Positions 30,367 through 49,950 of a stretch of DNA of 64,000 bases are shown here, piece by piece. The notes under the pieces were generated by a model. That model was given only the letters and a program-made list of their open reading frames with translations. It ran no database searches and was not told the DNA's origin. This DNA comes from an uncultured virus (IMG/VR IMGVR_UViG_3300008339_000030). Taxonomy: Duplodnaviria; Heunggongvirae; Uroviricota; Caudoviricetes. Each line of letters starts with the position of its first letter. The first letter of the stretch is position 1. Made by a program: the position numbers and the translations under genes. Location of the stretch: IMG/VR virus record IMGVR_UViG_3300008339_000030, positions 1 through 64,000 of that record. One strand, given 5' to 3'.

Positions 30367-30383
30367 TTCAGTAAGTAAACAAT

Positions 30384-32525: not shown

Positions 32526-32531
32526 GTACAT

Positions 32532-35500: not shown

Positions 35501-38240
35501 TGAATCTGAGGTCATCACAACAGGATATTCAGGTACATTTACCACTATCACAGAAAATAAATTTGCGTCAAAGGGTCGTGTCTGTGGTAATTTGTTACTA
35601 GGTAATTACATGGCAGGCGATTTACGTTTGGATCCGCCACAAATCACATGGGTAGATACACAAGTTCGTCCTGATGTTCAAGTAAATTATAACGGCGTTA
35701 ATGATGGATGGGAATTCAATACAAACGCCTTCAAGTTACACTGGAACAGTTGGAAAACCATATGGCAAGGTGTTGAAACAACCAATCTTCCTGTATTGAG
35801 TGTCACTACAGTTGCAGGTTTGGTAGGTGTTCGTGGTAGTGAAGCGGCACCATTAATTTCAGATGTCACAAAAAACATCATTACATCAGGTAAACTCCCA
35901 GAAAACAATCTTAGAAATATTGGTGTTCGTGTATTAGACGTTTCTGTTGTCCCATACATTGAAAAGCAAATCATCACATTCACTGCAACAGGATTGAAAC
36001 CCGGTACGGCTGTTCAGGCATATTTTGACGGCGAAGATGTCTCAGCACATTGCCGTTACTTTACATTGCCTACCGGTGTTACTGTAAATACAATACGTAA
36101 TTTGTCAGAAGGCATATTGTCATCACAATATACACCAAGTGCTTCGGCATACGGTGATCCATTAATTGTTGCAACCGATGGTACCTTAGTGGGACAATTC
36201 TTAATCCCTGCGAATACATTCCGCGTGGGAAATAAGGTGTTTAAATTAACAGATGCTTCAGAAACAACATCAGCGGCTGCACAATTACAATCATCAGGTG
36301 TCCCTAATATTGATGATGGTTCAATTTCATCAACACGATTCCCAGCAATTCGTCAAGATGCTCTTTCTGAAACACAAAACAATGTTGTGAGTCGTTTGTT
36401 GTTGTCTAATCCATCAACATTCAATCCCGCATCATTTGGCGATCCCATGGCACAGACCTTCATCATTGAAGGACATCCCGATGGTGTGTTCTTGAATAAG
36501 GTTGAATTGTTCTTCAAGAGAAAGTCATCAACCAAGAAGTTCACCATTCAAATCCGTGAAGTCATTAATGGATTCCCGGGCAATAAAATTGTACCGTTCA
36601 GTACCAAGACATTAAATGCGTCAGAAATTTCCGTCTCAGGTACTGCAAATACAGCAACCACATTTACATTTGAATCTCCGGTATATCTAAAGAACAACAC
36701 AGAATATGCTCTTATGTTATTGCCTGAAAACAACACGACTGAATATGAAGTGTGGGTTTCTGAATTGGGTGAAAATTTAATAGGCACTAACGAACGTATC
36801 ACACAACAACCTTATGTTGGTGTATTGTTCATTCCTAATAATAACACCATCTGGACAGCATTAGAATCTGAAGATTTGAAATTCAAAATGTATTCTAGAA
36901 GTTTTGAAACAACACGTACCGTCATTCTTGAATCTAAGCCCATTGATTACGTCACCATTTCACAAACAGGTACGTATGTTTTGAAACCAGGTGATGTTGT
37001 TCAAGTATTTGATGACACACAAACAGTATTGCCCGGAACAATTCAAGTATCAGAAAATGATACCATTGCGGGTTCAAGTACAGACTTCACCGACCTATCA
37101 GTGGGTGACCAACTTCGTGTATTTGCACCTTCGACAACAACCAATTTTACAGGTACTATCAGTATAACAGGTACTGCTGTCACTGGTTCAGCCACAACAT
37201 TCACCTCAGACCTACGTGTGGGTGACATTCTATATCAAGATGATAACATCACTGTTATTGGAAAGGTGGCATCAATTCAATCTGACACAGCATTAACACT
37301 TGAAGCCTCAGGGTCAGGTACTACATTGAATTATCGAGCACGCGCTTTGTTAGGTACAGTAAAAGACATCATCTCTGATACAAGTTTAGTTCTTGAAAAT
37401 GATGCAGTGAATATCACAGGAACAGGATTAACCTTCTATAAGGATGATACAACAGCTACAGGTTATGTCACGAAGGTGTATGGCACAACGGCTGAAATAT
37501 TCATAACCTCAGGTAGTTTGGCAACAAACGATACATTCACACGTGGTGCGTCTACATTCACCTTTGATAGTATTGATAACAAGCAAGCTACAGCACTTTC
37601 ACCTAACTTAGGTATCTTGAGTTTAAATCCCTCAACACAAGTGAAATTATCATACACACTACTTGATACATCAAGTACATATTATCCCGGGTTAGGCGCA
37701 TATATTACTGTGAACAATAATGATACTGTTGAGTTGCCTAAAGAATTCACAATTTATTCTCATTCAAACACAACAGGAAACATTCCTACATTGAAGATAA
37801 AGGCGGAATTATCAACCAATAATTCATTGTTAACACCTGTGTTAGACACACGAAAAATTTCTGTTCTAACATTGGCGAATGACATTGCCGCATCTGGTTC
37901 TTCAGATGCCGTGTATGTCACACGAACTGTAACATTGGATGGTGACGGCGCCGATGACTTGCGTGTATTCTTCGATATGATTCGTCCTGAACAATGTTCT
38001 GTAATTGTAGAAGCCAAGATGCAGAATGTAGAAGATGATAGACCGTTTGCTGATGTTGATTGGGTAACGTTGAATGAACAGGCTCCTGTTGTATATAATG
38101 GTAACATCTATCAGGAATATAGTTACAGTGTGTCAGCTCCTTCATCATTTGCCAAGTTTGCTGTGAAAATTACAATGAACTCCACTGATAAGAGTAAAAC
38201 TCCTCTCATTAAGAATCTCAGAGCAGTAGCGGTGATTTAA
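32532..38240 (+). CDS. Large virion structural protein (VrlC/DUF4815-like)
   Basis: PYYDDFD, VLFKPGYAVQARELTQLQ, RTYDESGNY, RYTMRDIG.LE.R..RLEYYT and DPMAQTF motifs. Confidence 0.85.
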   Translation: MAINLGTSPYYDDFDVEKNFHRVLFKPGYAVQARELTQLQTILQNQIQRFGDHVFKDGSVVVGCAETFQFNVPFVKVKNTDSAGITIGSSAYELYKTTLVNAVVSNELGVSAKIVRVDEDSTGQRVLYLNYQSSFYDETAQELITVFAEDEALTVVDSTGITQSFRFSVSSSSATGVGSLYTIDDGIVYVDGTFVRHNSQTKVLSFYSSTPTKNIGFRIITSTVTSNDDVSLLDPAAGSYNYAAPGGDRYKLTTQLESYEITTTPDQGFHLLFLVEEGKVKRAFNKPQYSELQRVLAQRTYDESGNYVVTGLNVNVREHLKTSTNNGKYTVETIGDASKLVYGVEPGKAYVEGFDTELKSTDYLAVDKATDTLLVDEQQIPTLFGNYVYVKSVTGSWSLAENNATLNLRDGSSVLIATAKFRLLRFYRDVTGTGSSKFYKLYLYGITLEAGKTVDDLTTIRNITTTNSSATVAITPGDDLGSVTQTGFKLHEGTYNSLLFPTGSQAVVQYENDTDYFFWKYLGEYTFNGSGNGSIAVSGVGQTLAGTSSSFKDDFIVVEPVGASYNLAEITGYTPTNTTSGTLAVAVGDAGANRKVYARVRQGNGAPIDLTLDTTFLAVDGSTLTSTSATNLAAGRIYLGVSHALQLVSVHIADDTEAYPSTESGLSAWSNVTSEFTLYENSNDNVYNTSYVQYTGAEDLTEKKIVLKLKNFTRSSTLGYLNRNSYQSALIDFDPTTLDYNKQIFTYELPVYTSESTGITYDIRDVIDFRPTVELRSGYSGQTYVDAKNNNMNASHNVPITTLDTTNGITIPDPDSTLTASFTINLPRKDKVVLTRDGEFKVITGVSALNPQTPADAINAMTLAVIELAPYPSLSTFASRVYDREDYASIVRLVDNRRYTMRDIGELEQRVNRLEYYTALSIAENRAANMLITDDSGNAMVKKGILVDAFDGHDIGNVFDADYYASIDTKNKILRAPFALNNIELHLPSDESEVITTGYSGTFTTITENKFASKGRVCGNLLLGNYMAGDLRLDPPQITWVDTQVRPDVQVNYNGVNDGWEFNTNAFKLHWNSWKTIWQGVETTNLPVLSVTTVAGLVGVRGSEAAPLISDVTKNIITSGKLPENNLRNIGVRVLDVSVVPYIEKQIITFTATGLKPGTAVQAYFDGEDVSAHCRYFTLPTGVTVNTIRNLSEGILSSQYTPSASAYGDPLIVATDGTLVGQFLIPANTFRVGNKVFKLTDASETTSAAAQLQSSGVPNIDDGSISSTRFPAIRQDALSETQNNVVSRLLLSNPSTFNPASFGDPMAQTFIIEGHPDGVFLNKVELFFKRKSSTKKFTIQIREVINGFPGNKIVPFSTKTLNASEISVSGTANTATTFTFESPVYLKNNTEYALMLLPENNTTEYEVWVSELGENLIGTNERITQQPYVGVLFIPNNNTIWTALESEDLKFKMYSRSFETTRTVILESKPIDYVTISQTGTYVLKPGDVVQVFDDTQTVLPGTIQVSENDTIAGSSTDFTDLSVGDQLRVFAPSTTTNFTGTISITGTAVTGSATTFTSDLRVGDILYQDDNITVIGKVASIQSDTALTLEASGSGTTLNYRARALLGTVKDIISDTSLVLENDAVNITGTGLTFYKDDTTATGYVTKVYGTTAEIFITSGSLATNDTFTRGASTFTFDSIDNKQATALSPNLGILSLNPSTQVKLSYTLLDTSSTYYPGLGAYITVNNNDTVELPKEFTIYSHSNTTGNIPTLKIKAELSTNNSLLTPVLDTRKISVLTLANDIAASGSSDAVYVTRTVTLDGDGADDLRVFFDMIRPEQCSVIVEAKMQNVEDDRPFADVDWVTLNEQAPVVYNGNIYQEYSYSVSAPSSFAKFAVKITMNSTDKSKTPLIKNLRAVAVI

Positions 38241-38431
38241 TGGAAACGCCATTTGTACGTGATAAGCATTCCAAGGCACTTATAAATACTGACACAACAG
38301 TTATTTTTGCTCGGCGTCAAGAAAAGCGTCAAGTGCAGAAGATATCCGAGCTTCAAGAAGAAATTACTGAAGTCAAAAACGACTTATTAGAAATAAAACA
38401 ATTATTACAATCAATAATCAACAGAGGATAA
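38240..38431 (+). CDS. Small coiled-coil hypothetical protein
   Basis: VRD..SKALIN followed by heptads; typical position after VrlC-like genes. Internal TATAAATA at 38281-38288. Confidence 0.7.
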   Translation: METPFVRDKHSKALINTDTTVIFARRQEKRQVQKISELQEEITEVKNDLLEIKQLLQSIINRG

Positions 38432-38434
38432 CTT

Positions 38435-39385
38435 ATGGCTACTTTAACGCTTCGCCAAACAGCCCCAGCAGCAGGAACAAACAAAGGTGCCCCACTTACT
38501 AATGCAGAAGTTGACGCCAACTTCAACAGTTTAGATGTTGCCAAATTGGAAAAATCAGGCGGCACAATGACGGGAACTTTAGTTCTTGTAACAGGAACAA
38601 CAACCATTGCTCCTGTAAAACTTGTGTCTGGCACAAACTTAACAACTCCACAAGCAGGTGCCGTCGAATTTAACGGCACGAACTTGTTTTTCACCCCAAG
38701 TTCAACACGCAAAACTGTCGCCTTCACTGATAGTAACATCACAGGCACATCGGCAGGTTGGACAACTGGTCGCACCGTGACATTCGCCACAGGCGATGTA
38801 ACAGGTAACTTCACCATTGATGGTTCTGCAAACGTATCAAACGTAGCGTTAACAATTGCCGCCAACTCAGTTGCTTTAGGCACCGATACTACAGGTGATT
38901 ATGTCGCATCATTAGTGGCAGGCACAGGTGTTACATTAACAAATAATAGTGGTGAGAGTGCCACACCCACTGTTGCCATTGGTCAAGCCGTAGGAACAGC
39001 AAGTAACGTGACATTTGGAAGTATCAATGTGGGCTCAGCAACAGGTGCTGCCACAGGACAAATCAAGGCATCAGGTGACATCATTGCCTTCTCATCCTCA
39101 GATGCAGGATTAAAGACAGATGTTGCAGTTATTTCTGATGCTCTCACAAAGGTGAAGGCACTTCGCGGTGTCACATATACTTGGAATGAAGAAGCTAATG
39201 CATTAGGATTACATGGGGCAGATACAGGTGTTATTGCACAAGACGTTGCCGGTGTACTACCTGAAGTTGTAACAACCCGTGAAAGTGGTCACATGGCTGT
39301 GAAGTATGAAAAGATGATTGGGTTGTTGATTGAAGCCATTAAGGAATTGGATGATAAGTTAAGTAAGTGCAACTGCACTAAGTAA
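38435..39385 (+). CDS. Tail fibre protein with C-terminal S74 intramolecular chaperone
   Basis: SSDAGLK cleavage motif, GVIAQDV..VLPE and V.YEKM..LLIEAIKEL. Confidence 0.85.
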   Translation: MATLTLRQTAPAAGTNKGAPLTNAEVDANFNSLDVAKLEKSGGTMTGTLVLVTGTTTIAPVKLVSGTNLTTPQAGAVEFNGTNLFFTPSSTRKTVAFTDSNITGTSAGWTTGRTVTFATGDVTGNFTIDGSANVSNVALTIAANSVALGTDTTGDYVASLVAGTGVTLTNNSGESATPTVAIGQAVGTASNVTFGSINVGSATGAATGQIKASGDIIAFSSSDAGLKTDVAVISDALTKVKALRGVTYTWNEEANALGLHGADTGVIAQDVAGVLPEVVTTRESGHMAVKYEKMIGLLIEAIKELDDKLSKCNCTK

Positions 39386-39406
39386 TAACACAGGAGAACA
39401 TAGACA

Positions 39407-40810
39407 ATGGCCATCGTATCCAGCGGGCAAATTTCAATTAAAGATGTAGGCGACGAAAAGGGATTGCCGTCAAGTGAACTATCCCTTCAGTCATTGTCTA
39501 CAAACAATGTTAACACATTGGATCCTTCTCCTAAGGTGCCTGCTAACACTTCGGGTGCGGTAGGTAATTATCCTGACGGTTCAACACCTCATGCTATCAG
39601 TGAGTTTTTTGCCTATAATCATAATTTTACTACTACAACTACCGCGGCACCAACAACTACAACATCCACATCAACAACTACCGCGGCACCAACAACTACA
39701 ACATCCACATCAACAACTACCGCGGCACCAACAACTACAACATCCACATCAACAACAACGACGACATCAACAACAGAACCACCAACAACGACGACATCAA
39801 CAACATCTACAACATCTACAACATCTACAACAGAACCACCAACAACGACGACATCAACAACATCTACAACATCTACAACAGAACCACCAACAACGACGAC
39901 ATCAACAACAGAACCACCAACAACGACGACATCTACATCTACAACATCTACAACATCTACAACATCTACAACATCTACATCAACAACATCAACTACATCA
40001 ACAACCACAGCGGCGCTCGGTGATTGTTGGACCGTATACAACACTTCACCATTCAACAATCAACAAACCTATGTGTTCGACTATATACCCTATGGTAGTG
40101 CTGGATATATACAAGGATCATTGGATTTCGGCCAATTTGTTAATTTATGTGTAGCACCAGGTACGTTGATTGTAGATGTAAGCGGACAAGGTGGATCTAC
40201 ATCAGGTGGATTTGGAGTATGTACCAACGACTCTCAATGTTCAGGCTCACCCCCAGCAACAACTACTACAACTACAACAGCAGCCACAACTACTACAACA
40301 GCAGCCACAACTACTACAACAGCAGTCTGTTATAGTTCAACATTGGGACTTTCAGGTGTTCAAGGAAGTATATCTGGAGCCTGTTCAGCCGCAGCACAAT
40401 TCACATATTATGTGGGTGGAACCAAGTTGTATACTGACTCGGGATGTGGCACGTTTGCAGACGCCGGTTATTATGGCGATGGAGGTGGGGTATACTATCA
40501 AGTAACAGGCGCAGGTAACTTGACAGGCCCAACATCGTGCCCAGGCGGAACAACGACAACAACTGCAGCTCCCACAACAACTACAACAGCAGCTCCCACA
40601 ACAACTACAACAGCAGCAACAACAACTACAACAGCAGCAGCAACAACAACAACGACAACATGTGTCGTGGGTTGTTTACCTGGCACATCAACATGTATAG
40701 GTGACGCTGCTGTATGTGACCTTCAAAATGACGATTGCACAATCACATATGGATATTTGGTACAAAACTGTGATCCTGGCTGTTGTTCAGGTGGTGCATG
40801 TATCTGCTAA
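39407..40810 (+). CDS. Mucin-like Thr-rich, Cys-rich putative fibre-tip protein
   Basis: N-terminal MAIVSSGQIS...PHAISEFFAYNH domain, three poly-Thr/Ser/Pro tracts alternating with Cys-rich modules, ending CDPGCCSGGACIC. AGGAG RBS. Confidence 0.75.
   Translation: MAIVSSGQISIKDVGDEKGLPSSELSLQSLSTNNVNTLDPSPKVPANTSGAVGNYPDGSTPHAISEFFAYNHNFTTTTTAAPTTTTSTSTTTAAPTTTTSTSTTTAAPTTTTSTSTTTTTSTTEPPTTTTSTTSTTSTTSTTEPPTTTTSTTSTTSTTEPPTTTTSTTEPPTTTTSTSTTSTTSTTSTTSTSTTSTTSTTTAALGDCWTVYNTSPFNNQQTYVFDYIPYGSAGYIQGSLDFGQFVNLCVAPGTLIVDVSGQGGSTSGGFGVCTNDSQCSGSPPATTTTTTTAATTTTTAATTTTTAVCYSSTLGLSGVQGSISGACSAAAQFTYYVGGTKLYTDSGCGTFADAGYYGDGGGVYYQVTGAGNLTGPTSCPGGTTTTTAAPTTTTTAAPTTTTTAATTTTTAAATTTTTTCVVGCLPGTSTCIGDAAVCDLQNDDCTITYGYLVQNCDPGCCSGGACIC
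39635..40010 (+). repeat. Coding tandem repeats (39 bp x3, then ACATCTACA and ACAGAACCACCA units)
   Basis: ACAACTACCGCGGCACCAACAACTACAACATCCACATCA occurs three times at 39635-39751, followed by 9-bp repeats encoding TST. Confidence 0.9.
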
Positions 40811-40839
40811 ATCATTAACAACAAGGTGATATTTACTTT

Positions 40840-41790
40840 ATGAAAAACTTACGTTATATATCAGCCCAACCTGCCATTGATTATTACACATGGCAGGTTG
40901 AGGTTATGATACACAATTTTTTAAAAAATGGTTTAAATCCAAACAATATAGATATTGTATGTTCCATTAAAAACAATCATATCCCTGATGCTTGGATTAA
41001 ATTAGCTAATCACTATAACACGGTTCGATTCTTTTTTTATAATGATGACAGAGAAAATTCGGTATATATTTCTTCAATTCGTCCACACATTCTACAAAAA
41101 CATTTTGAGAAGCATCCTTATTTAAAAGATGAAGCCATTATGTATCATGATTGCGATATCATTCTCACGAAGCCCCCACAATGGGACCATTTAGTGCATG
41201 ACGATGTTTGGTATTTAAGTGACACGCGCTATTACATTGGAGCAGAATATATTAAAAGCAAAAAATGTGGTGTGTACGAACGCATGTGTGAAATTGTAGG
41301 TATAAGTGAAGATGTTCCGGTACAATATGAGATGCACAGTGGAGGTGCTCAATATCTCATGAAAAACATTGATGCTGCTTTTTGGAAAAAGGTGTATGAG
41401 GATTCTGAAAAATTGTATCAATTTTTTCTTGACCATCTGAAAGCATTTCCTCAAACCGATAAATATCACCCCATACAAAAATGGACTGCTGATATGTGGG
41501 CAGTTTTATGGAATGGTTGGTATTTTGGACATGATACCAAAGTGGTGGACGAATTAGAGTTCACATGGCCTATGCACGGTCTTGACTTTTGGGAGAAATG
41601 TACTATCATGCATAATGCGGGAGTTACAGGAGAAACAGCAGATAAGGACAGAACTTTTTTTAAGGGTAAGTATGTTGACGGAAAATTACCGTATAATAAT
41701 ATTACTCTTGAAAATTATAACGAAAAGATGTGTACATATAAGTATGTACAAGAAATTCTTGAAACCGCTAAAACGAGTTGTTTACTATGA
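40840..41790 (+). CDS. Putative glycosyltransferase (GT-A, resembling GT95/GT96 peptidyl O-glycosyltransferases)
   Basis: YYTWQ near the N-terminus, DCD (DxD), GGAQY, WTADMWA and a late His. Confidence 0.55.
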   Translation: MKNLRYISAQPAIDYYTWQVEVMIHNFLKNGLNPNNIDIVCSIKNNHIPDAWIKLANHYNTVRFFFYNDDRENSVYISSIRPHILQKHFEKHPYLKDEAIMYHDCDIILTKPPQWDHLVHDDVWYLSDTRYYIGAEYIKSKKCGVYERMCEIVGISEDVPVQYEMHSGGAQYLMKNIDAAFWKKVYEDSEKLYQFFLDHLKAFPQTDKYHPIQKWTADMWAVLWNGWYFGHDTKVVDELEFTWPMHGLDFWEKCTIMHNAGVTGETADKDRTFFKGKYVDGKLPYNNITLENYNEKMCTYKYVQEILETAKTSCLL

Positions 41791-42356
41791 GATATGATTT
41801 TGTTGAAATAGGCACATGCGACTACCACACGTTATTAGAAGGGTGTACACCTGAACAAATAGGTTTGTCAGTCGAACCTGTAAAAACATATCTAGACCGA
41901 TTACCCGATAAACCTAATGTAACTAAGATAAACGTTGCTATATCAGCAGAAAACAACATAGTAGATTTATTTTGGGTTGAACCCGAAAATCAAGAAAAGT
42001 ATAATTTAGGTTTCACAAAAGGTTGGGCCACTATAATTAAACCCCACCGAGGTCATTCTGAAGCAAAAAAGATGTTAGAGACAGGAATGTTAACTAACCA
42101 TAAAATAGAAGCCATCACATGGTCTACCCTTGTGGAACGTTATCAAATCGAATCTGTGGATTTAGTTAAGATAGACACAGAGGGTCATGATTGTGTAGTT
42201 GTTAACAGTATACTTGATTCTTCTGTTCATCCAATACAAATAGAGTTTGAAATAACACATTGCTTAAAAGAAGAATTGGCTCAGACATATTCACGCCTTC
42301 AAAAAAATAGATATACATTAATTATAGAAGGTGAAGATGCCGTATGGAGAAGATGA
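41787..42356 (+). CDS. FkbM-family SAM methyltransferase
   Basis: FVEIG, SVEP, NVAIS and DLVKIDTEGHD motifs. ATG 41787 overlaps the upstream stop. Confidence 0.85.
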   Translation: MRYDFVEIGTCDYHTLLEGCTPEQIGLSVEPVKTYLDRLPDKPNVTKINVAISAENNIVDLFWVEPENQEKYNLGFTKGWATIIKPHRGHSEAKKMLETGMLTNHKIEAITWSTLVERYQIESVDLVKIDTEGHDCVVVNSILDSSVHPIQIEFEITHCLKEELAQTYSRLQKNRYTLIIEGEDAVWRR

Positions 42357-42983
42357 ATGATACCAAAAATAATTCATCAAATATGGGTAGGGGATTTTAA
42401 ATTACCCAAGCGAGAACAGAAACTAGCAAATGAAATAAAAGAGATGCACTCGGATTACGAATATATTTTCTGGTCTTCGCCCCCACCATTATCTAAAAAT
42501 ATTCAAAATTGGTATGACAAATTCTACTCAATAAAAAACTATGCTTTTTGTGCAGACTTGTTACGTATTTGGGCTGTTAAAGAATTTGGAGGATTCTACT
42601 TGGATATTGATTTTAAACCGGTGAATTCATTGGACGATTTTTTAAATTATGATGGGGTATTTTTATACCACAACGAAGGCGACTTAACTATTCCAAATAA
42701 TGTATTTGGTGCAAAAAAAGATTTAGATGTTCTAGAATACTGTACACAACAAATAAATGATAGCAATAATTGGTATGGGCCTAGTTGGTTTGGTAGTGTT
42801 GTTAAATCTTCTTTAGGGTATAGTTATGAAACCACACACGAAGTTATTAAAAACAAGATGAGGGAAAAGAATATAGAATATTTTGTGTACGGAGAATTTG
42901 AAAATAAATATGCAAAACATTTATCATTGTACAGTTGGTCGCCTGAAATTTGGAATAGATTAAATAACCAGGAACAGTTATGA
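42357..42983 (+). CDS. GT32 (Och1-like, DxD) glycosyltransferase
   Basis: MIPKIIHQIW, ADLLR, GGFYLDID, GP and H..L.SW motifs. Confidence 0.88.
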   Translation: MIPKIIHQIWVGDFKLPKREQKLANEIKEMHSDYEYIFWSSPPPLSKNIQNWYDKFYSIKNYAFCADLLRIWAVKEFGGFYLDIDFKPVNSLDDFLNYDGVFLYHNEGDLTIPNNVFGAKKDLDVLEYCTQQINDSNNWYGPSWFGSVVKSSLGYSYETTHEVIKNKMREKNIEYFVYGEFENKYAKHLSLYSWSPEIWNRLNNQEQL

Positions 42984-43765
42984 AAAAAGTTAGTTTTGTC
43001 TGTACATCATTTAGAAGATATACATGTGTCAATAGAATCATTGCGCAGTTTAATGCACAAACATACCCAAACAAAGAACTGATTATCCTAAATACAGATA
43101 TGGAATATCCTATGTCATTGGGATTTTCTGATGACCGTATTGTATTAATAAACAATAACACTGATATGCAAACAGGTCTTCCGTATACTAATCGAGGACA
43201 AATTTGTCGTGATGCAGTAATCTACGCCACAGGTGATTATTTCATGTTGGCTGATGATGACGACATTTACCTACCTTGGCATATTCAACAAGCTGTAGAT
43301 AAAATAGAAGAAGTGGGTACAGATGCATGGAAACCTCAAAAAAGTTTCTTTGCCACTCAACATAAATTAGAACTTACACAAAATACATTGGAAGCAAGTG
43401 TTATTGTGAAAATGCCTCGGATTCGACAAATTGGATTTCGCTCAGACATCACAGGATATGAGGGATTGAGTTGGTATACTAAATTACGCGATGAAAAACA
43501 ATTAGATGAACATTACACACACTACGTTCCCTCATATTGTTTCAATTGGTCAGACCCACATGAAATAGCAGGACATAAACAAAGTGGAAATATTAATGAC
43601 CCCAATAATTTTGAACAACATAAAGCAGCATCACAAGATTATGCAAAAGAACCTTTACGTAATGACATGAACCTCACCGACGTATATGAAAAATATTACG
43701 TCTTTTTACGAAATAATAGTGAACTATTTCCTAGTGATTTAATCCTTAAATATGTGAAAGAATAA
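42980..43765 (+). CDS. GT2-family glycosyltransferase
   Basis: VSFVC, QTYPNKELII and ATGDYFMLADDDDIYLP motifs. Confidence 0.85.
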   Translation: MKKVSFVCTSFRRYTCVNRIIAQFNAQTYPNKELIILNTDMEYPMSLGFSDDRIVLINNNTDMQTGLPYTNRGQICRDAVIYATGDYFMLADDDDIYLPWHIQQAVDKIEEVGTDAWKPQKSFFATQHKLELTQNTLEASVIVKMPRIRQIGFRSDITGYEGLSWYTKLRDEKQLDEHYTHYVPSYCFNWSDPHEIAGHKQSGNINDPNNFEQHKAASQDYAKEPLRNDMNLTDVYEKYYVFLRNNSELFPSDLILKYVKE

Positions 43766-44433
43766 TGCAACCAAACACATTTCCTGATGTAGCCAACATC
43801 ATTGATACATCGTCTGTGCCCATTTTAATACTTGTGATATCTGAAGGGTGTGAAAATGGATTAAAACCAGAACAGCAGCAGTTAGAACAAAAGCTACAAG
43901 AACATCCTACACCTGTGGTATATTACACCATGTGTATCCCAGAACATCTCATGGGATTTCCTCGTGCCCAAACTCCCACATTATACTATTTTCTTCCGAA
44001 AAATCAAACTCCTGTGTTCTGGCGATTTGCCATATTCAATAACACATTGAATGATGATTTAAACATCATCACAAAAATGATGACAGGATTGACATATGAA
44101 CAAGCTCGTTTCACACCTGAAGAACAAGAAACCATTTTAAAGGTTGATTATTTTTTAGAACAGGAGAAGGAAACCCTTCATAAGTTTCCTTCAGTATTTC
44201 AACAGGCACGGAATCTTGCCAAAGAAATGTGGAAAACAGGAAAAAACGCCGCAAAAGGATTGCCTGTCATTGTTCCTACTGAAGTGGGATTTGAACGTAT
44301 GAATATTTGTCAGTCATGTGACAAGTTGGAAAAAGATGCATTTCGCTGTACTGAGTGTGGTTGTTTCATGAAAACCAAGACTCAACTCGCCTCAGCGTCA
44401 TGTCCATTAAATAAATGGGCACCGCATGTATAA
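43765..44433 (+). CDS. Thioredoxin-fold-like N-domain plus C-terminal Cys cluster
   Basis: N-part has a TPTLYYF cis-Pro-like motif; C-terminus reads R..IC..C...C.ECGC......CP..KW. Confidence 0.5.
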   Translation: MQPNTFPDVANIIDTSSVPILILVISEGCENGLKPEQQQLEQKLQEHPTPVVYYTMCIPEHLMGFPRAQTPTLYYFLPKNQTPVFWRFAIFNNTLNDDLNIITKMMTGLTYEQARFTPEEQETILKVDYFLEQEKETLHKFPSVFQQARNLAKEMWKTGKNAAKGLPVIVPTEVGFERMNICQSCDKLEKDAFRCTECGCFMKTKTQLASASCPLNKWAPHV

Positions 44434-44436
44434 ATA
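44429..44436 (+). promoter_or_regulatory. T4-type late promoter
   Basis: TATAAATA upstream of ATG 44465. Confidence 0.65.
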
Positions 44437-44464
44437 CTATAGAACGATTAATTAGGATTTCTCA

Positions 44465-44878
44465 ATGGCAACGTTAACATTACGAACAGTTAAAGGATCA
44501 ACATTAACACATCAAGAACTTGATGACAATCTCTCAAACTTGAATAGTTTCAAGGTTGAAGGTCGTGCAGGAACGTTAACAACAACAAGTACGTCATTAA
44601 ATCAACTATTGGATTCTGTTGCAGCATCTTCTGTTAGAACATTGCGATACATTGTTCAAGTTGCCAACACAACTACGAGTGAGTTTCATGCCACATCTCT
44701 CATGATTATTCATGATGGAACCACTGTGTATTTAACTGAATATGGCACTGTATTGACAGGAAACTCTTTGGCAACATTTGATGCTGATATTAATAGTGGA
44801 AATCTTCGTATTTTAGTTACGCCTACAAATGCATCATCAACGGTGTTTCGTTTTTCTGCTATGACAATTCAGGCATAA
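44465..44878 (+). CDS. Small tail-fibre-associated structural protein
   Basis: N-terminus matches 38435; C-terminal domain matches 47829. Confidence 0.65.
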   Translation: MATLTLRTVKGSTLTHQELDDNLSNLNSFKVEGRAGTLTTTSTSLNQLLDSVAASSVRTLRYIVQVANTTTSEFHATSLMIIHDGTTVYLTEYGTVLTGNSLATFDADINSGNLRILVTPTNASSTVFRFSAMTIQA

Positions 44879-44888
44879 TTTCAAAAAC

Positions 44889-44896
44889 TATAAATA
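44889..44896 (+). promoter_or_regulatory. T4-type late promoter
   Basis: TATAAATA upstream of ATG 44905. Confidence 0.6.
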
Positions 44897-44904
44897 TTCA
44901 ACAT

Positions 44905-45237
44905 ATGGCAACTGCTCGTAATTTAGTTATTGACCAAGGTAGTACATATTCAATTTCCATTGAACTGTCTGACGCCTTGGGCAATCCTTTAGATTTAACT
45001 GATTATACCATTCGTGCTCAAATGCGTAAAAGTTATGGGTCGAATACGTATACTCAATTCACAACTTCTGCAGGTGATGAACCTGAGAATGGGGTGATTA
45101 CATTATCATTAACATCAACTCAAACAGGAGCATTACGTTTTGGTCGATATGTCTATGATATTGAAATTGAAAATGATGATGTAATTACCAGAGTTCTTGA
45201 AGGGATAGTAACCGTAACACCCGAGGTCACACGATAA
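44905..45237 (+). CDS. Conserved phage structural protein (BppU-N-like fold)
   Basis: IDQG, DLT.Y...AQMRK, GRYVYD and RVLEG..TVTP motifs. Confidence 0.65.
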   Translation: MATARNLVIDQGSTYSISIELSDALGNPLDLTDYTIRAQMRKSYGSNTYTQFTTSAGDEPENGVITLSLTSTQTGALRFGRYVYDIEIENDDVITRVLEGIVTVTPEVTR

Positions 45238-45449
45238 TGGCACTCAAAGTACAAGTATCAACACCTCAAAGAATTAATACAAATGTAAAAAAGGTTTCGT
45301 TACCTCTAGTTAATTTAGAAGAATTGAAGAACGTGAATAAAGATAATTTAGAAGATGGCGCCACTTTGATATGGAATGAAACGGAACAACGTTGGGATGC
45401 ACAGCAAATTCAAGCATCAGCAACGAATATAGATGGCGGAACATATTAA
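45237..45449 (+). CDS. Small fibre-associated protein
   Basis: DGATLIWN....W and a terminal IDGGTY shared with 45471. Confidence 0.55.
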   Translation: MALKVQVSTPQRINTNVKKVSLPLVNLEELKNVNKDNLEDGATLIWNETEQRWDAQQIQASATNIDGGTY

Positions 45450-45470
45450 AAAACCCACAGGAGATTTTCC

Positions 45471-47252
45471 ATGTCAACAGTAATTCAAATTAAGCGTTCT
45501 TCAGGATCAACAGCACCAGCAACATCTGCCTTAGCAGAAGGCGAATTAGCGTATAGTCAAGACCGCTCCAACAGCGGCGCCGGCGCTATTCTCTACATCG
45601 AATCTGTAGGTTCAGACGGTACTACCCAAGTTATTGATAAAGTAGGTGGTAAATACTACACCAACACAGTTGATGCCTTCTTAGTTCCTGCCACAGGAAC
45701 AGTGGGCGCAAAGGTGGAATTAAAGGATGCCGATGCTACACATTCTGTCACATTAAAGGCACCTAACACAGTTGCAGCCAACGTTACATACACATTACCT
45801 TCAACATTCAGTGCAGACCAATATTTAAAGACTGACGGTTCAGGTAATCTTTCATTTGCTGCCGTTCCATCAGGATCCTTCACAATTGCAGGTGACACAG
45901 GTACTGACAATTTCACAACAGGTGAAACATTAACATTCACCGGTGGCGAAGGTATTGATACATCAATTACCGATAACGTAGTAACAATTTCAGCAGAAGA
46001 TGCATCTGATACCAACAAGGGTATTGCATCATTCAACAGTACCAACTTCACAGTATCATCAGGTAACGTTGTTATCAACTCAGTACAAGCCACAAAGGTT
46101 GATATTGCAGGCGGCACATCATTAACATCATTGGCTGATTCAGATGAATTCTTGGTCTATGATGCCTCAGCAGAAGCAAATCGTCGCATCACAGCAGAAA
46201 ACGTTGCAGATTACATCTATGCCGGATTGTCAGGTGATATCAGTGTAACTGAAGCAGGTGTAGTTTCTATTGCCGCTAACTCAGTAGCACTAGGTACAGA
46301 CACAACAGGTAACTATGTTGCTACTGTTGCGGGTACAGCAAATCAAATTTCCATCACTGGCTCAGGCTCAGAAACGGCTGCTGTTACAGTTGCATTAACT
46401 GAAGATGTGGCATTGGTAGGTGATTTGACAGTTGGTGGTAACGACATCAAGATGAGTGGTGGCACAACAGCCATTACATTCTCAGGCTCAGGTGACGTTG
46501 CAGTAGCAGGTGATTTAACTGTTACAGGTAATGACATCAAGTCCTCATCAGCCACAGCACTTACTCTTTCAGGTGCTGATGTCGCAGTTGCAGGTGATTT
46601 GACAGTTACAGGTAACGATATCAAATCCTCATCAGCAACAGCACTCACATTGTCAGGCGCCAATGTTGAAGTTAAGGGTGATTTACAAGTTACAGGTAAC
46701 GATATCAAGTCATCAACAGGCGCAACTGCCTTGACACTTGATGGCGCCAACGTAACTGTGGCAGGTAACTTAACAGTTAACGGTTCATCAACAATTGTAA
46801 ACTCAACAACTGTAACAATTGATGACGTACTCTTGAAGTTGGCTGATAACAACACAGGTAACTCAGTTGACTCAGGTGTCTATGCTGAATATGTTGAATC
46901 ATCAACAACGAAGTATGCTGGTTTCTTCCGCGATGCGTCTGATAACAACATCTTCAAGTTCTTCAAAGGATTAGAATCAGAACCATCAACAACTGTTAAC
47001 GTAAGTGGTACAGGTTACTCAGTTGGTACAATCTTAGCCAACTTGACAGGCGGTACTGTTTCAAGTCTAGCTTCAGCAATCGGTGTTGCAGATGGTGGTA
47101 CAGGTGCTTCAACATTGACAAGTAACGGTGTATTGTATGGTAATGGCACAGGCGCCATTCAAGCAACAGCAGCAGGCACAAACAATTACTTCTTGAAGTC
47201 AAACAATGGCACACCAAGTTGGTCAAATGTCATTGATGGTGGTACTTACTAA
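45471..47252 (+). CDS. Tail fibre-like protein with internal repeats
   Basis: IQIKRS...LAEGELA N-terminus, GDLTVTGNDIK repeated four times, terminal IDGGTY. Confidence 0.75.
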   Translation: MSTVIQIKRSSGSTAPATSALAEGELAYSQDRSNSGAGAILYIESVGSDGTTQVIDKVGGKYYTNTVDAFLVPATGTVGAKVELKDADATHSVTLKAPNTVAANVTYTLPSTFSADQYLKTDGSGNLSFAAVPSGSFTIAGDTGTDNFTTGETLTFTGGEGIDTSITDNVVTISAEDASDTNKGIASFNSTNFTVSSGNVVINSVQATKVDIAGGTSLTSLADSDEFLVYDASAEANRRITAENVADYIYAGLSGDISVTEAGVVSIAANSVALGTDTTGNYVATVAGTANQISITGSGSETAAVTVALTEDVALVGDLTVGGNDIKMSGGTTAITFSGSGDVAVAGDLTVTGNDIKSSSATALTLSGADVAVAGDLTVTGNDIKSSSATALTLSGANVEVKGDLQVTGNDIKSSTGATALTLDGANVTVAGNLTVNGSSTIVNSTTVTIDDVLLKLADNNTGNSVDSGVYAEYVESSTTKYAGFFRDASDNNIFKFFKGLESEPSTTVNVSGTGYSVGTILANLTGGTVSSLASAIGVADGGTGASTLTSNGVLYGNGTGAIQATAAGTNNYFLKSNNGTPSWSNVIDGGTY

Positions 47253-47273
47253 TAATCTGAATAGAGACTCGTT

Positions 47274-47456
47274 ATGGACACACAAAAACTTTTAAACAAG
47301 TACATCGCCTCTTTGGGTGAACAAGTCAAACAGTTAACAATGGAAAAAACAATGTTATCTGCCCAACTTGCTCTCACCCAAGAGGAGTTGGAAGAAATGA
47401 AAAAGAAGTTAGATACTTCCCCGGCATCTGAAGAAAATAGTCAATGGCAACAATAA
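47274..47456 (+). CDS. Small coiled-coil hypothetical protein
   Basis: Heptad pattern; lies within the fibre cluster. Confidence 0.55.
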   Translation: MDTQKLLNKYIASLGEQVKQLTMEKTMLSAQLALTQEELEEMKKKLDTSPASEENSQWQQ

Positions 47457-47797
47457 TTAAACTTAAAAGAAGCGAGTTAGCATTAGCTATACCAACCGTC
47501 AATGATTTGGCGGTTGGTGAACTTGCTATAAATTCAATTGATAAAATCTTTTATATTAGAAAATCAAATGATGAAATTGTACCTGTTGCCAATTACGTTG
47601 ATATTGATCCAAGTGAAATTGACACCCGTTTAGATGCTGTTGAAACTGCTTTGTTAGGCTCAGTGTTCCCGTCAGGAGATTACGGGGATTTAGATGCTTT
47701 AACTGTAGATGCGTTTGGCGTCTTAGTGAGTAGATCCTATGATTGTTTAACGACACCGGCAGGATCTTTGTTAGAAACAGATTTAGAAAGTCTTTAA
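47444..47797 (+). CDS. Hypothetical fibre-associated protein
   Basis: IKLKRS...LAVGELAIN N-terminus paralogous to 45471. Confidence 0.6.
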   Translation: MATIIKLKRSELALAIPTVNDLAVGELAINSIDKIFYIRKSNDEIVPVANYVDIDPSEIDTRLDAVETALLGSVFPSGDYGDLDALTVDAFGVLVSRSYDCLTTPAGSLLETDLESL

Positions 47798-47828
47798 TAT
47801 AAAATATAGAGATACAGGAGATTTATAG

Positions 47829-48548
47829 ATGCCAACACAGGTGCAGTTTCGTAGAGGAACAACAACACAAAATAATAATTTCACCGGCGCTGCGGGTGAA
47901 ATTTCGGTAGACACAACTCTTAAAACTCTACGTGTTCATGATGGCACCACCCAAGGTGGGTTTTCTTTGGCAAAATCTGATTTGTCTAATACAACAGCCA
48001 TTACACCTACAAGTGTGTCTACATTAACAAACAAAACTGTTACGTTAGGTAATAACACAATAACAGGGACTATTGCAGAATTTAATACCGCGTTAACTGA
48101 CAGCGATTTTGCCACGTTAGCGGGCACAGAAACATTAACAAACAAGACGCTAACAAGTCCTACGCTAACAAGTCCTACACTGACAACACCTACGTTGGGT
48201 GTGGCATCAGCAACATCGGTTGCATTGGCTAACGGTATTCTTCGTTCAGCTACACTGACAACCTCCGCCACAACAGCAAATCAAGTAGCGGATAGTATTG
48301 CAATTGCAACGTATAGAAGTGTGAAATATCAAATTTCCATCACATCAGGTTCTGCATATCATATGACTGAAGTAAGTATCATCCACGATGGAACTGATGC
48401 ATACATCACTGAATATGGTACTATTTTGACAGGGGTATCATTGGCGTCATTTGATGCAGATATCTCAGGGGGCAATCTTCGTCTGTTGACAACACCTGCA
48501 AATGCCTCAACGGTGTATAAGATTGTAGCAACAGCAATCAATGTCTAA
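47829..48548 (+). CDS. Fibre protein with Mtd-N-like N-terminal domain
   Basis: QVQFRRGTT...FTGAAGEISVDT...VHDG.T.GG and TLTNKTL repeats. Confidence 0.75.
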   Translation: MPTQVQFRRGTTTQNNNFTGAAGEISVDTTLKTLRVHDGTTQGGFSLAKSDLSNTTAITPTSVSTLTNKTVTLGNNTITGTIAEFNTALTDSDFATLAGTETLTNKTLTSPTLTSPTLTTPTLGVASATSVALANGILRSATLTTSATTANQVADSIAIATYRSVKYQISITSGSAYHMTEVSIIHDGTDAYITEYGTILTGVSLASFDADISGGNLRLLTTPANASTVYKIVATAINV

Positions 48549-49411: not shown

Positions 49412-49422
49412 CTTTTATTATC

Positions 49423-49926: not shown

Positions 49927-49950
49927 CCCTGCCACCGAGGATAGAGAATC

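Follow-up and report, generated by a model that had tools for sequence, protein, structure and literature searches.

A widespread phage glycosyltransferase family encoded next to poly-threonine proteins as a candidate initiator of O-glycosylation

The window, i.e., the whole 64,000-nucleotide stretch of viral DNA analysed here, originates from a T4-like aquatic phage. Inside its tail-fibre/baseplate module, the gene of a single-domain glycosyltransferase lies directly adjacent to that of a poly-Thr protein. Megablast of positions 30000–50000 found no match among 50,697 phage records. The locus comprises the following features:

39407..40810, plus strand: mucin-like candidate acceptor protein, 467 aa, with 31.5% Thr, 11.8% Ser and 18 Cys
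39620..39982, plus strand: linker 1 of the candidate acceptor, residues 72–192, with TTTAAPTTTTSTS and TTEPPTTTTSTTS repeats; main predicted O-glycosylation tract
40232..40300, plus strand: linker 2 of the candidate acceptor, residues 276–298, from the segment map
40529..40627, plus strand: linker 3 of the candidate acceptor, residues 375–407, from the segment map
40823..40830, plus strand: Shine-Dalgarno-like AAGGTGAT, 9 nt 5' of the glycosyltransferase ATG, read from the sequence
40840..41790, plus strand: single-domain GT-A glycosyltransferase, 316 aa, ATG start, phrog_4417; proposed initiating peptidyl-Thr/Ser O-glycosyltransferase
41149..41157, plus strand: DxD codons D104-C105-D106, after strand beta4 (residues 99–102); putative metal/nucleotide-sugar site
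41611..41619, plus strand: H258-N259-A260 codons in the HNAG motif; H258 is family-invariant and a putative third metal ligand
41787..42356, plus strand: FkbM-family SAM methyltransferase (Pfam Methyltransf_21, E 4.6e-09; TIGR01444, E 2.1e-07, under its cut-off)
42357..42983, plus strand: GT32-like glycosyltransferase with DXD sugar-binding region (Pfam Gly_transf_sug, E 2.8e-12); proposed glycan extension
42980..43765, plus strand: GT2-family glycosyltransferase (Glycos_transf_2, E 1.8e-06; phrog_14775 glycosyltransferase, E 1.7e-04); proposed glycan extension
43765..44433, plus strand: DUF6171 protein, 222 aa (Pfam DUF6171, E 3.7e-06); 3' boundary of the cassette

From 39407 to 44433 the genes are packed in an operon-like manner, and the glycosyltransferase stop codon overlaps the following ATG as ATGA (41787–41790). 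For the FkbM gene, ORF calling puts an alternative TTG start upstream at 41778. Between 38000 and 45500, neither promoters (34 versus 26.5 ± 5.6 in shuffled sequence) nor terminators (6 versus 4.9 ± 2.0) were predicted above controls. The 467-aa protein is built from an N-terminal module (residues 1–71), three Thr/Ser/Pro/Ala linkers, a pair of small globular domains and, at its C-terminus, a Cys-rich knot (residues 408–467). It is the only protein of the 64-kb window with poly-S/T runs, of which nine contain at least 10 Ser or Thr in 12 residues. Searches of Pfam, PHROG and NCBIfam gave no match for it, and in the fetched loci the relatives of its globular domains were identical copies only. 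Linker 1 varies in length between the copies in two loci, L090 and L091, that are otherwise 100% identical.

The ORF at 40840–41790 is a member of a real and widespread protein family. It matches the phrog_4417 profile over its full length (E 9.3e-69; residues 5–309 against profile positions 2–291 of 293), an entry that PHROGs lists with function unassigned. At E ≤ 0.001 the family numbers 2333 proteins, or 980 clusters at 50% identity, and it occurs in 77 isolate phage records and at least 595 IMG/VR loci. The initial annotation had regarded this enzyme class as not normally associated with bacteriophages, which is wrong in the sense that the family is common there and merely unannotated. Its members are found in phages of Enterococcus, Lactobacillus, Staphylococcus, Clostridium and Bacteroidota as well as in aquatic T4-like and crAss-like phages, and some are fused to GT2, GT6, GT7C, GT29 or GT32 domains, with the phrog_4417-type domain mostly N-terminal. 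Pfam, NCBIfam and the literature searched hold no name for the family, and the literature searches returned no paper on it or on its pairing with poly-Thr proteins.

Three motifs singled out from the sequence at the outset, YYTWQ with a downstream Met, DCD and WTADMWA, are all present, as YYTWQ at residues 15–19 followed by M23, HDCD at 103–106 and WTADMWA at 215–221. In an alignment of 33 relatives (51–75% identity), W18, Q19, H103, D104, D106, W215 and M219 are invariant and W220 is kept in at least 90% of the sequences. A broader alignment of 52 sequences (31–50% identity) still has D106 and M219 invariant, and W18, D104, W215 and W220 are kept in at least 90%. The motifs thus fall on the best-conserved columns of the family and are not chance strings.

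The AF2 model of the glycosyltransferase (pLDDT 95.7) displays a GT-A fold with the DxD motif directly after beta4. In GT-A enzymes, DxD is the site of metal and nucleotide-sugar binding. Near the C-terminus, H258 is invariant and K275 conserved in the family alignments; we take these residues to resemble the metal and phosphate site of GT8 enzymes, with H258 presumably corresponding to their C-terminal metal-ligand His. The N-terminus, MKNLRYISAQPA, forms strand beta1 at residues 4–11 and, on inspection of the sequence and the AF2 model, contains no hydrophobic segment. The enzyme would be cytoplasmic, catalytically active and, given its DxD motif, metal-dependent; its family is large, unnamed and mostly phage-borne.

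Which named enzymes the protein is closest to depends on whether predicted or solved structures are compared. In the Atlas structure search, predicted HPAT-domain models gave a TM by query of 0.75–0.76 over 282–284 residues; these matches are Chlorophyta and Streptophyta clusters, 100% of them with PF23452, and both sides of the comparison are predicted models. Of the 30 named Atlas clusters nearest to the enzyme, 20 carry PF23452. Orf49 of Lactobacillus phage LP65, a true remote family member, reached a TM of 0.74 at 21% identity. The HPAT models, the closest named relatives, score the same as this genuine distant relative. In contrast, GT8-like viral and PDB structures stayed at TM ≤ 0.52, with Foldseek TM by query of 0.40–0.50 for solved GT8-type structures. 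These are nevertheless the best matches among solved structures: within the 50 VIA matches listed, retaining GT8-type enzymes lead with Z 14.5–12.7 and 211–248 aligned residues, and 6mw8, 1g9r, 3u2t and 3tzt have Z 14.5–13.7. For 6mw8 (Skp1 glucoside alpha-galactosyltransferase), 1g9r (LgtC), 6fsn (UGGT catalytic domain), 3u2t (glycogenin), 6u4b (WbbM C-terminal domain) and 5gvv (GlyE), Z ranges over 14.5–12.9 with an rmsd of 3.6–4.2 and 212–245 aligned residues. The GT8-type enzymes have the DxD after beta4 in common with the phage enzyme, whereas their sequence identity to it is only 6–13% and a Pfam search at E ≤ 0.1 found no Glyco_transf_8 (PF01501), its sole match, Lamp2-like, being noise. 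GT27 polypeptide GalNAc-transferases do not appear among the 50 VIA matches listed, a similarity that may still exist.

At the sequence level, the relationship to plant enzymes is much fainter. The Pfam HPAT model PF23452 had no match in the genome of the window at E ≤ 10. Over 52 family members it gave a single match, in P0149, with E 0.23 and 11.2 bits against a gathering score of 23.9 bits, albeit in register (residues 9–114 against profile positions 9–115); none of the 120 relatives found in a search with P0149 was labelled PF23452. The model matched none of five genomes that carry homologues and none of 401 Bacteroidota genomes, where the controls gave no match either, so that absence does not follow from the latter. 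Phmmer of the glycosyltransferase against PDB sequences gave one noise match (E 2.1). A search of PDB sequences with the family profile returned TALE-repeat and MinE matches and no glycosyltransferase; we judged these spurious because they are built of many sub-threshold repeats.

The initial annotation had likened the protein to the plant peptidyl O-glycosyltransferases HPAT and SGT1. Predicted structure and language-model features bear this likeness out, while the sequence profiles do not. Best structural matches to GT8 enzymes had been named as evidence against it; among solved structures this is indeed what is found, but in our view it does not settle the matter, since the PDB matches contain no entry with HPAT or SGT1 in its title. 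In our best reading, the family is probably a distant relative of the plant HPAT/SGT1 enzymes.

Gene order ties the family to poly-Thr proteins. We examined 79 IMG/VR loci, i.e., the 80 best of 595 without the copy in the window itself, and scored ORFs with at least 60% S+T in 40 aa. Such a poly-S/T ORF lies at position −1 relative to the glycosyltransferase in 48/78 loci and at +1 in 0/77 (Fisher p 1.5e-19, for loci that are mutually related and not independent events), and 69 of the 70 poly-S/T ORFs are located upstream. Within three ORFs downstream, 15/46 loci have extra Pfam glycosyltransferases and 10/46 have SAM methyltransferases. Single-domain homologues in bacterial genomes have a poly-S/T ORF nearby in 27/42 loci. 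Their typical prophage pattern places the tract at the C-terminus of an ORF of about 210 aa at −1 and of one of about 400 aa at −6, which by position are likely the major tail and capsid proteins. At the thresholds used, 22 of the 79 viral and 15 of the 42 single-domain genomic loci show no tract, some contigs ending early. Two-domain homologues (at least 450 aa) on Bacteroidota chromosomes have a poly-S/T ORF within 4 kb in 0/38 cases; the family is hence not tied to poly-Thr acceptors everywhere.

The strict pairing extends to distant phages. In six of seven distant isolate phages examined (33–39% identity), virion proteins beside the gene contain runs of at least five Thr. Poly-Thr-tailed capsid or tail-tube proteins are found in Enterococcus, Lactobacillus, Clostridium, Staphylococcus and Chryseobacterium phages. 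In phiFL1A, where the gene is flanked by those of the major tail protein and the tail chaperones, the C-termini of the major tail protein and of a putative capsid protein are poly-Thr, and in iLp84 those of the capsid, a small protein and the major tail protein. Capsid or tail-tube C-terminal tracts thus occur in phiFL1A, iLp84 and Bacillaceae prophages; the window itself, beyond which the capsid gene lies, contains none. No homologue of the enzyme was found in five phages with a major tail protein that shares 50–60% identity with the phiFL1A one (0/5; positive control 4/4); their tail proteins are without poly-Thr, and two of these stop immediately behind the common PGxTTGDYxNI motif. Of the 34 CDS scanned in the phiFL1A genome (38.8 kb), none matched a Pfam glycosyltransferase family, which leaves gp51 as the sole candidate there.

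The closest relative of the window phage, L092, has flanks that are 74–89% identical and a different cassette at the same site. It encodes a Cys-rich mucin-like protein with TPTNT repeats together with two PF11397 transferases (E 7e-73 and 7e-49), a family which we take to be the GT60 polypeptide GlcNAc-transferases.

In view of this comparative context, the glycosyltransferase probably starts O-glycosylation of the Thr/Ser linkers of the upstream protein, whose glycan the GT32-like, GT2 and FkbM enzymes would then complete. The initial annotation had proposed the initiating role from the window alone; gene order across phages now lends it strong support, with the activity itself still a prediction. 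Using a nucleotide sugar supplied by the host, the enzyme would place the first sugar on hydroxyl groups of Thr/Ser within the three Thr-rich linkers of the 39407–40810 product. The co-transcribed GT32-like and GT2 enzymes would lengthen the glycan, and the FkbM methyltransferase would methylate it. We infer the acceptor and the order of enzymes from gene context. The product might be a mucin-like protein coated with glycans, presumably incorporated into the particle, as its gene is located among tail-fibre and baseplate genes. Since the pairing of the enzyme with poly-Thr recurs in very different phages, these phages probably coat parts of their own virions with sugar.

The glycosyltransferase might alternatively add later sugars, with initiation left to the GT2 or GT32-like enzyme encoded alongside it or to one from the host. 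Many of its best solved matches (LgtC, UGGT, Skp1 glucoside alpha-galactosyltransferase, GlyE, LARGE1) act on glycans, and the window cassette indeed offers two more glycosyltransferases. Yet one GT8 enzyme, glycogenin, attaches sugar straight to a protein side chain. Moreover, phiFL1A has two poly-Thr-tailed virion proteins and only this one glycosyltransferase-like gene in the 34 CDS scanned, in prophage-like genomic loci the enzyme is a single gene behind the tail-bearing ORF, and it is the constant neighbour of the poly-Thr ORF, accompanied by a changing set of other enzymes. We therefore consider a purely extending role unlikely. Even less favoured is phosphoglycosylation, where Ser/Thr would receive a sugar-phosphate or a different non-canonical group instead of a sugar in simple glycosidic linkage. 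Structures of a GT-A-like GlcNAc-1-phosphotransferase and of Stealth CpsY are among the matches (Z 9.7–9.9), and one family member has a weak Stealth_CR2 match. However, these structures rank well under the GT8 group (Z 14.5–12.7) and the HPAT models, and the Stealth_CR2 match is not significant (E 0.17); we regard such a chemistry as very improbable.

A further alternative is that the enzyme acts on polysaccharide or LPS of the host envelope, for instance to exclude superinfection, or on phage DNA, and that the poly-Thr neighbour is unrelated. The available text of PMC12801897 and PMC12619734 reads phage glycosyltransferases usually in this way, as enzymes acting on host envelope or DNA, which favours such a target. 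The two-domain Bacteroidota homologues without a poly-Thr neighbour (0/38) would agree with it, and the GT32-like neighbour in relatives also matches Caps_synth. Against it stands the pairing, which is strict, directional and strand-specific (48/78 at −1 versus 0/77 at +1), and the location of the gene within structural modules, as between the phiFL1A major tail protein and tail chaperones. Furthermore, enzyme and poly-Thr tail are lost together, and L092 has at the same site an alternative cassette with what are presumably polypeptide GlcNAc-transferases. An envelope or DNA target hence appears quite improbable, and initiation on the upstream Thr/Ser linkers remains our preferred reading.

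This predicted initiation has parallels in several known systems. The plant and algal HPAT1-3 (GT95) and SGT1 (GT96) enzymes of PF23452 are the nearest in named predicted fold; the available text of PMC8012813 assigns HPAT an initiating role and relates GT95 to GT96, and that of PMC8476585 gives a GT-A-like prediction for GT95. Like the activity proposed for the phage enzyme, theirs is a peptide-directed initiation on repetitive, hydroxyl-rich tracts. The phage enzyme would, however, modify Thr/Ser runs instead of hydroxyproline or Ser-Hyp4. It also has no N-terminal anchor and its setting is the phage/bacterial cytoplasm, unlike the plant enzymes, which the available text of PMC8012813 describes as type II Golgi membrane proteins. 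Mucin-type O-glycosylation by GT27 and GT60 enzymes, with dense Ser/Thr arrays, a dedicated initiator and subsequent extension (PMC8724618, in the text available), follows the same logic as that proposed here, and L092 pairs its two PF11397 enzymes with a Thr/Pro-repeat protein. By Pfam, the window enzyme is neither PF11397 nor GT27, and its setting is prokaryotic and cytoplasmic, not the Golgi.

Among viruses, chlorovirus PBCV-1 provides a precedent with A64R (2p6w), a GT-A enzyme encoded by the virus, which acts in the cytoplasm and glycosylates a structural protein of the virus itself. As a structural match it is much weaker than GT8 or HPAT (Z 10.5, 189 residues aligned), and it differs from the window enzyme in family and acceptor context, its acceptor being atypical N-linked sites on Vp54. 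To our knowledge, experimental self-glycosylation of phage particles is confined to mycobacteriophages in the literature found, as far as its accessible text goes. There, phage-encoded glycosyltransferases and glycans at capsid and tail-tube C-termini were described (Freeman et al. 2023, Cell Host Microbe, as cited in the available text of PMC12619734). The poly-Thr tails encoded by our distant relatives are found at the same places as the glycans in that account. Since the 77 phage records with a homologue include none from a Mycobacterium phage, the mycobacteriophage system probably relies on a different enzyme family. Also unlike the capsid and tail-tube acceptors of that account, the window acceptor is a separate mucin-like multi-domain protein.

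We may speculate more broadly, and only tentatively, that tailed phages of many lineages possess a cytoplasmic mucin-type O-glycosylation of their own around a prokaryotic and viral branch of HPAT/SGT1, with a swappable cassette of acceptor and enzyme diversifying the glycan coat. The HPAT/SGT1 superfamily has so far been regarded as plant and algal. The hot spot of the tail-fibre module holds an HPAT-like enzyme with poly-Thr linkers here and PF11397 enzymes with TPTNT repeats in L092. Such diversification of the coat on an exposed particle protein may be likened to that of bacterial O-antigens.

Gene order, gain and loss, and cassette swapping link an unnamed family to poly-Thr tags on capsid, tail and fibre proteins. 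If our interpretation is correct, glycan-coated virions would be common. This would matter for the immunogenicity and clearance of phages used in therapy, for the way virions adhere to mucus and surfaces, and for the recognition of hosts. A name could be given to thousands of 'hypothetical proteins', plant GT95/GT96 would acquire a prokaryotic and viral sister group, and glyco-engineering would gain a soluble single-domain enzyme for adding sugar to simple Thr tags.

The DUF6171 protein at the 3' boundary is only a possible member of the glycosylation system. Its AF2 model (pLDDT 83) shows a thioredoxin-fold N-terminal domain (about residues 4–108) with a single invariant cysteine, C29, at the thioredoxin active-site position, followed by a helical middle region and, at the C-terminus, the Cys-cluster domain DUF6171. 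The 50 VIA matches listed (Z 10.0–7.8) are thioredoxin-like domains, chains and fusions plus a few designs and large-complex subunits. As a general partner of the glycosyltransferase we rejected it, as just 2 of 79 related loci have a homologue. Complex prediction for the two proteins scored 0.00 in two runs, which says nothing for or against binding. The DUF6171 domain is fused to the family glycosyltransferase in three members (P0074, P0086 and P0121), and the protein is 52% identical in L092 despite the different cassette there.

The glycosyltransferase (GT) ORF starts with ATG, encodes 316 aa and fills exactly positions 40840-41790 of the plus strand. It is preceded by AAGGTGAT at 40823-40830, and at its end the stop codon and the start codon of the following gene share an ATGA. 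The genes from 39407 to 44433 are closely packed on a single strand, and both sides of this cassette block are occupied by tail-fibre-like genes:

39407-40810 (+), candidate acceptor, a mucin-like protein of 467 aa (31.5% Thr, 11.8% Ser, 18 Cys)
40840-41790 (+), GT
after the GT, FkbM methyltransferase (Pfam E 4.6e-09)
after the FkbM gene, GT32-like DXD enzyme (Pfam E 2.8e-12)
after the GT32-like gene, GT2 enzyme (Pfam E 1.8e-06)
43765-44433 (+), last gene of the block, 222-aa protein ending in DUF6171

The acceptor protein combines an N-terminal module of ~65 aa (39407-39631, residues 1-75; ending ...TPHAISEFFAYNH) with three Thr/Ser/Pro/Ala linkers (residues 72-192, 276-298 and 375-407) and small globular domains; its end is rich in Cys. 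All nine Ser- and Thr-rich (poly-S/T) runs of the 64-kb window lie in this ORF. Linker 1 (39620-39982) varies in length among gene copies that are otherwise 100% identical: the first globular domain begins 609 nt (window), 555 nt (locus L090) or 531 nt (L091) after the gene start, with 100% identical flanks. This reflects either variation in the number of Thr-rich repeats or an assembly artefact in repeats.

The motifs YYTWQ (residues 15-19), DCD (as HDCD, 103-106) and WTADMWA (215-221), from which the initial annotation had started, are present and form the most conserved columns of the GT family. W18, Q19, H103, D104, D106, W215 and M219 are invariant among 33 relatives of 51-75% identity, with W220 in at least 90%; in 52 sequences of 31-50% identity, D106 and M219 are still invariant, and W18, D104, W215 and W220 occur in at least 90%. 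Pfam and NCBIfam searches of the GT returned nothing meaningful. Over its full length it matches phrog_4417 (E 9.3e-69), for which the PHROGs function entry is "unknown". The family comprises 2333 proteins at E ≤ 0.001 in a 90%-clustered collection (980 clusters at 50% identity), and none of the 120 matches listed bears a name other than "hypothetical protein". Of 50,697 records of isolate phages, 77 contain a homologue, all below 40% identity and nearly always annotated as hypothetical; their organism names begin with Lactobacillus (23), Enterococcus (21), Staphylococcus (11), Lactococcus (8), "Bacteriophage" (6), Clostridium (3), Lacticaseibacillus (2), Chryseobacterium (1), Arcanobacterium (1) or Levilactobacillus (1). 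In long members, the family domain is mostly N-terminal; 12 of 26 scanned carry fused GT2, GT6, GT7C, GT25, GT29, GT32, radical-SAM, methyltransferase or DUF6171 domains, and 14 gave no additional Pfam match.

An AlphaFold2 model based on the 33-sequence alignment (pLDDT 95.7, pTM 0.92) follows GT-A nucleotide-sugar transferases in the order of its strands and helices. Strand 99-102 leads directly into the DxD motif (D104, D106), and the C-terminal part contains the invariant residues H258 and K275. Upon exhaustive comparison with 48,161 PDB representatives, retaining GT8-type enzymes came out on top: Skp1 glucoside alpha-galactosyltransferase 6mw8 (Z 14.5, rmsd 3.6, 212 residues aligned), LgtC (Z 14.4, 239 residues aligned), the UGGT catalytic domain (Z 14.1), glycogenin (Z 14.0), WbbM (Z 13.9), an Anaerococcus GT8 protein (Z 13.7), GlyE (Z 12.9) and LARGE1 (Z 12.7). 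Foldseek gave the same GT8-type picture at modest TM values by query (0.40-0.50). The initial annotation had likened the enzyme to plant-type peptidyl O-glycosyltransferases (GT95 HPAT, GT96 SGT1) and had seen GT8 as the opposing outcome of a structural comparison. Best matches among solved structures are indeed GT8-type; among predicted models, however, HPAT is closer. By structure, the ESM Atlas returned eukaryotic clusters (Chlorophyta, Streptophyta) that are 100% PF23452, the Pfam HPAT model, at TM values by query of 0.76 and 0.75 (282 and 284 residues aligned). By language-model features, PF23452 occurred in 20 of the 30 nearest named clusters, on 10-58% of their members, and DUF7164 in six; no GT8-labelled cluster was among the Atlas matches listed. 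As a calibration in BFVD, Orf49 of Lactobacillus phage LP65, a true remote family member of 21% identity, reached a TM of 0.74, and GT8-like proteins of giant viruses and phages reached at most 0.52. Judged by these models, the HPAT domain is thus as close to the GT as its remotest recognisable relatives, and clearly closer than GT8.

This likeness does not extend to sequence. The Pfam HPAT model matched nothing in the genome of the window at E ≤ 10 and none of five genomes with GT homologues. It matched one of 52 family members at E 0.23, residues 9-114 being aligned in register to profile positions 9-115. It also found no match in 401 Bacteroidota genomes, where the controls were blank too, so that this does not imply absence. 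One study describes HPAT1-3 as founders of GT95, related to GT96 (SGT1), and as initiating, motif-recognising enzymes (PMC8012813); in another, predictions give GT95 a GT-A-like and GT96 a novel fold (PMC8476585). The GT family is separate from PF23452 as now defined, and probably constitutes a distant branch of the HPAT superfamily.

Gene context points to the upstream protein as acceptor. From at least 595 IMG/VR loci with a GT relative, the best 80 (45-100% identity) were taken; 79 loci were tested after ORF calling, leaving out the window's own copies (L001, L002), for ORFs containing a 40-aa stretch that is at least 60% Ser+Thr. Such an ORF came immediately before the GT relative, on the same strand (position -1), in 48 of 78 loci, and immediately after it (+1) in none of 77 (Fisher p 1.5e-19, among the best 80 of at least 595), a p value that overstates independence because the viral loci are akin to one another. 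Among 750 flank ORFs, 69 of the 70 S/T-rich ones lay upstream of the GT relative, and 57 of the 79 loci had at least one; this directionality is striking despite the kinship of the loci. Downstream, 115 of 186 ORFs at +1 to +3 were scanned, from 46 loci of aquatic phages. GT32, GT2, GT6, GT7C, GT34 or GT9 matches were seen in 19 ORFs of 15 loci, SAM methyltransferases in 11 ORFs of 10 loci and a radical SAM enzyme in one ORF. At four IMG/VR loci (L013, L015, L032, L033) the homologue adjoins CrAss_Ring_1, CrAss_Ring_2 and crAss_MUZ_C (tail ring, muzzle) genes, so the pairing occurs in crAss-like phages too.

In isolate phages, GT homologues of 33-39% identity were examined in seven genomes. 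Runs of at least five Thr were found on structural proteins close to the GT gene in six of them, and four of seven passed a stricter cut-off of at least 70% Ser+Thr in 20 aa. In phiFL1A, the major tail protein gp50, directly upstream, ends in a 25-residue poly-Thr tail, and gp45, downstream of the scaffold gene, has C-terminal Thr runs as well. Thr runs are also found in iLp84 (capsid protein, a 125-aa protein directly upstream, major tail protein), Chryseobacterium phage MA9V-3 (two upstream proteins), phiCTP1 (gp11, gp18), Staphylococcus phage RQ1 (C-terminus of the major tail protein) and VPE25 (major tail protein and a 392-aa protein). In SAC12B, the remaining phage, the upstream protein carries TTV(K/A)P repeats in place of Thr runs. 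In RQ1 (L088:4232-4934), the annotated major tail protein ends in the Thr run and an overlapping 103-aa ORF goes on as poly-Thr; it looks as if the gene were split at the repeat by annotation, frameshift or sequencing error.

Among bacterial genomes, 128 loci had a GT relative, of which the best 80 were analysed. Single-domain homologues (<400 aa) had a flank ORF with at least 10 of 12 residues Ser or Thr in 27 of 42 loci. A regular Bacillaceae/Staphylococcus pattern places C-terminal S/T tails on a ~210-aa ORF at -1 and a ~400-aa ORF at -6, by position likely the major tail and capsid proteins. In contrast, two-domain homologues (at least 450 aa) had no such flank ORF in 38 loci (Fisher p 6e-11), which counts against a universal poly-Thr acceptor link. 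These proteins (L128, L132, L133, L136 and 34 further loci) measure 450-900 aa, some with Glyco_transf_7C or GT2 after the family domain, and reside on chromosomes of Chitinophaga, Pedobacter, Sphingobacterium, Mucilaginibacter and relatives. They probably represent a cellular family branch, with another pathway and a different acceptor.

Gain and loss of the tail can be followed around phiFL1A. Streptococcus Javan prophages and Lactobacillus plantarum phages encode homologues of its major tail protein body at 50-60% identity. The family profile, which detected four of four known carriers at E ≤ 1e-83, found no GT homologue in any of Javan47, Javan505, Javan311, Silenus and phiJL-1, and none of these five GT-less records has a poly-Thr tail on its tail protein. 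In Javan505 and Javan311 the tail protein stops directly behind the shared motif PGxTTGDYxNI, and in the remaining three it has a short tail that is not Thr-rich; among these six records, only phiFL1A shows the poly-Thr continuation. In the window's own lineage, 28 loci, many of them incomplete, encode a remoter relative of the DUF4815 structural protein found upstream and lack the GT; 27 of them lack a poly-S/T run.

In L092, the closest relative of the window, the flanks are conserved (DUF4815 protein 74%, fibre protein 81%, DUF6171 protein 52%, downstream genes 76-89% identity), and the mucin-like, GT, FkbM, GT32-like and GT2 genes are absent. The site of window 39407-44433 is taken by an alternative cassette (L092:8147-14764) that includes the conserved DUF6171 protein. 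It encodes a 445-aa Cys-rich protein of TPTNT-type repeats, two PF11397 "Glycosyltransferase (GlcNAc)" proteins (E 7e-73 and 7e-49), two unknown ORFs and an NAD-dependent sugar epimerase/dehydratase. PF11397 is the Pfam counterpart of CAZy GT60. Polypeptide alpha-GlcNAc-transferases of GT60 start mucin-type glycosylation in Dictyostelium and T. cruzi, according to PMC8724618. Two Thr-rich acceptors at one site, each with its own candidate peptide-directed enzyme, suggest a glycoprotein with its initiating enzyme, and would otherwise be hard to explain. The repeat protein's C-terminal end (L092:9290-9484; ending ...APHGIGEFIGYHH) and the window's N-terminal module share 31% identity over 68 aa (pairwise E 2e-5), and may represent a docking module at opposite ends of the two acceptors.

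The 222-aa DUF6171 protein has an N-terminal thioredoxin-fold domain (model pLDDT 83). For residues 4-108, the matches listed (top 50; Z 10.0-7.8) are thioredoxin-like domains, chains and fusions, led by the Grx3 Trx-like domain at Z 10.0, with a few designs and large-complex subunits as the remainder. One invariant Cys (C29) occupies the active-site position, and the C-terminal DUF6171 part holds a CxxC...CxxCxC...C cluster. Being common to both cassette versions and kept beside two different Cys-rich acceptors, the protein may have a redox or folding role. A homologue occurs in only two of 79 related loci; in other phages, DUF6171 is fused to the GT family domain.

The GT had been proposed to add the first sugar to Thr/Ser of the upstream protein. 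In phiFL1A (38.8 kb), 34 of 61 annotated CDS were scanned with Pfam, leaving out those below 75 aa or already assigned (integrase, repressor, large terminase, portal, tape measure, holins, endolysin). Pfam glycosyltransferase families were not matched by any of these 34, so gp51 is the sole candidate there and must add the first sugar, if the phage glycosylates the tails. By analogy to GT-A/GT8 enzymes, the GT would bind a nucleotide sugar via D104, D106, H258 and a divalent metal and transfer the sugar in the cytoplasm onto Thr/Ser hydroxyls of the disordered acceptor linkers. The GT32-like and GT2 enzymes might then lengthen the glycan, and FkbM might methylate it. From its gene position among fibre and baseplate genes, we infer that the mucin-like protein is part of the virion. 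The initial interpretation is thus partly supported: the predicted fold is HPAT-like, the sequence is not that of PF23452, and the upstream protein is a candidate acceptor, well supported by gene context.

Phage self-glycosylation as such is already known, and the GT system would be a variant of it. In the full-text literature searched, mycobacteriophage virion glycosylation is the closest known phenomenon, and no paper turned up that deals with the phrog_4417 family or links poly-Thr tags to a glycosyltransferase of phages.

The 64 kb of the window form the start of a viral contig of 78.5 kb from IMG/VR, whose estimated completeness is 44%. PHROG matches identify a T4-like myovirus structural module (baseplate hub and wedge, tail sheath, portal, large terminase), the portal being ~52% identical to those of Synechococcus T4-like cyanophages. 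Megablast of window 30000-50000 against the 50,697 phage records found no close isolate phage at the DNA level. Positions 1644-4387 (+), 35 kb away from the cassette, encode a radical-SAM protein (phrog_1802) and, after it, a Nol-like carbamoyltransferase (phrog_1601, E 1.3e-103); the two may be sugar-modifying auxiliary genes.
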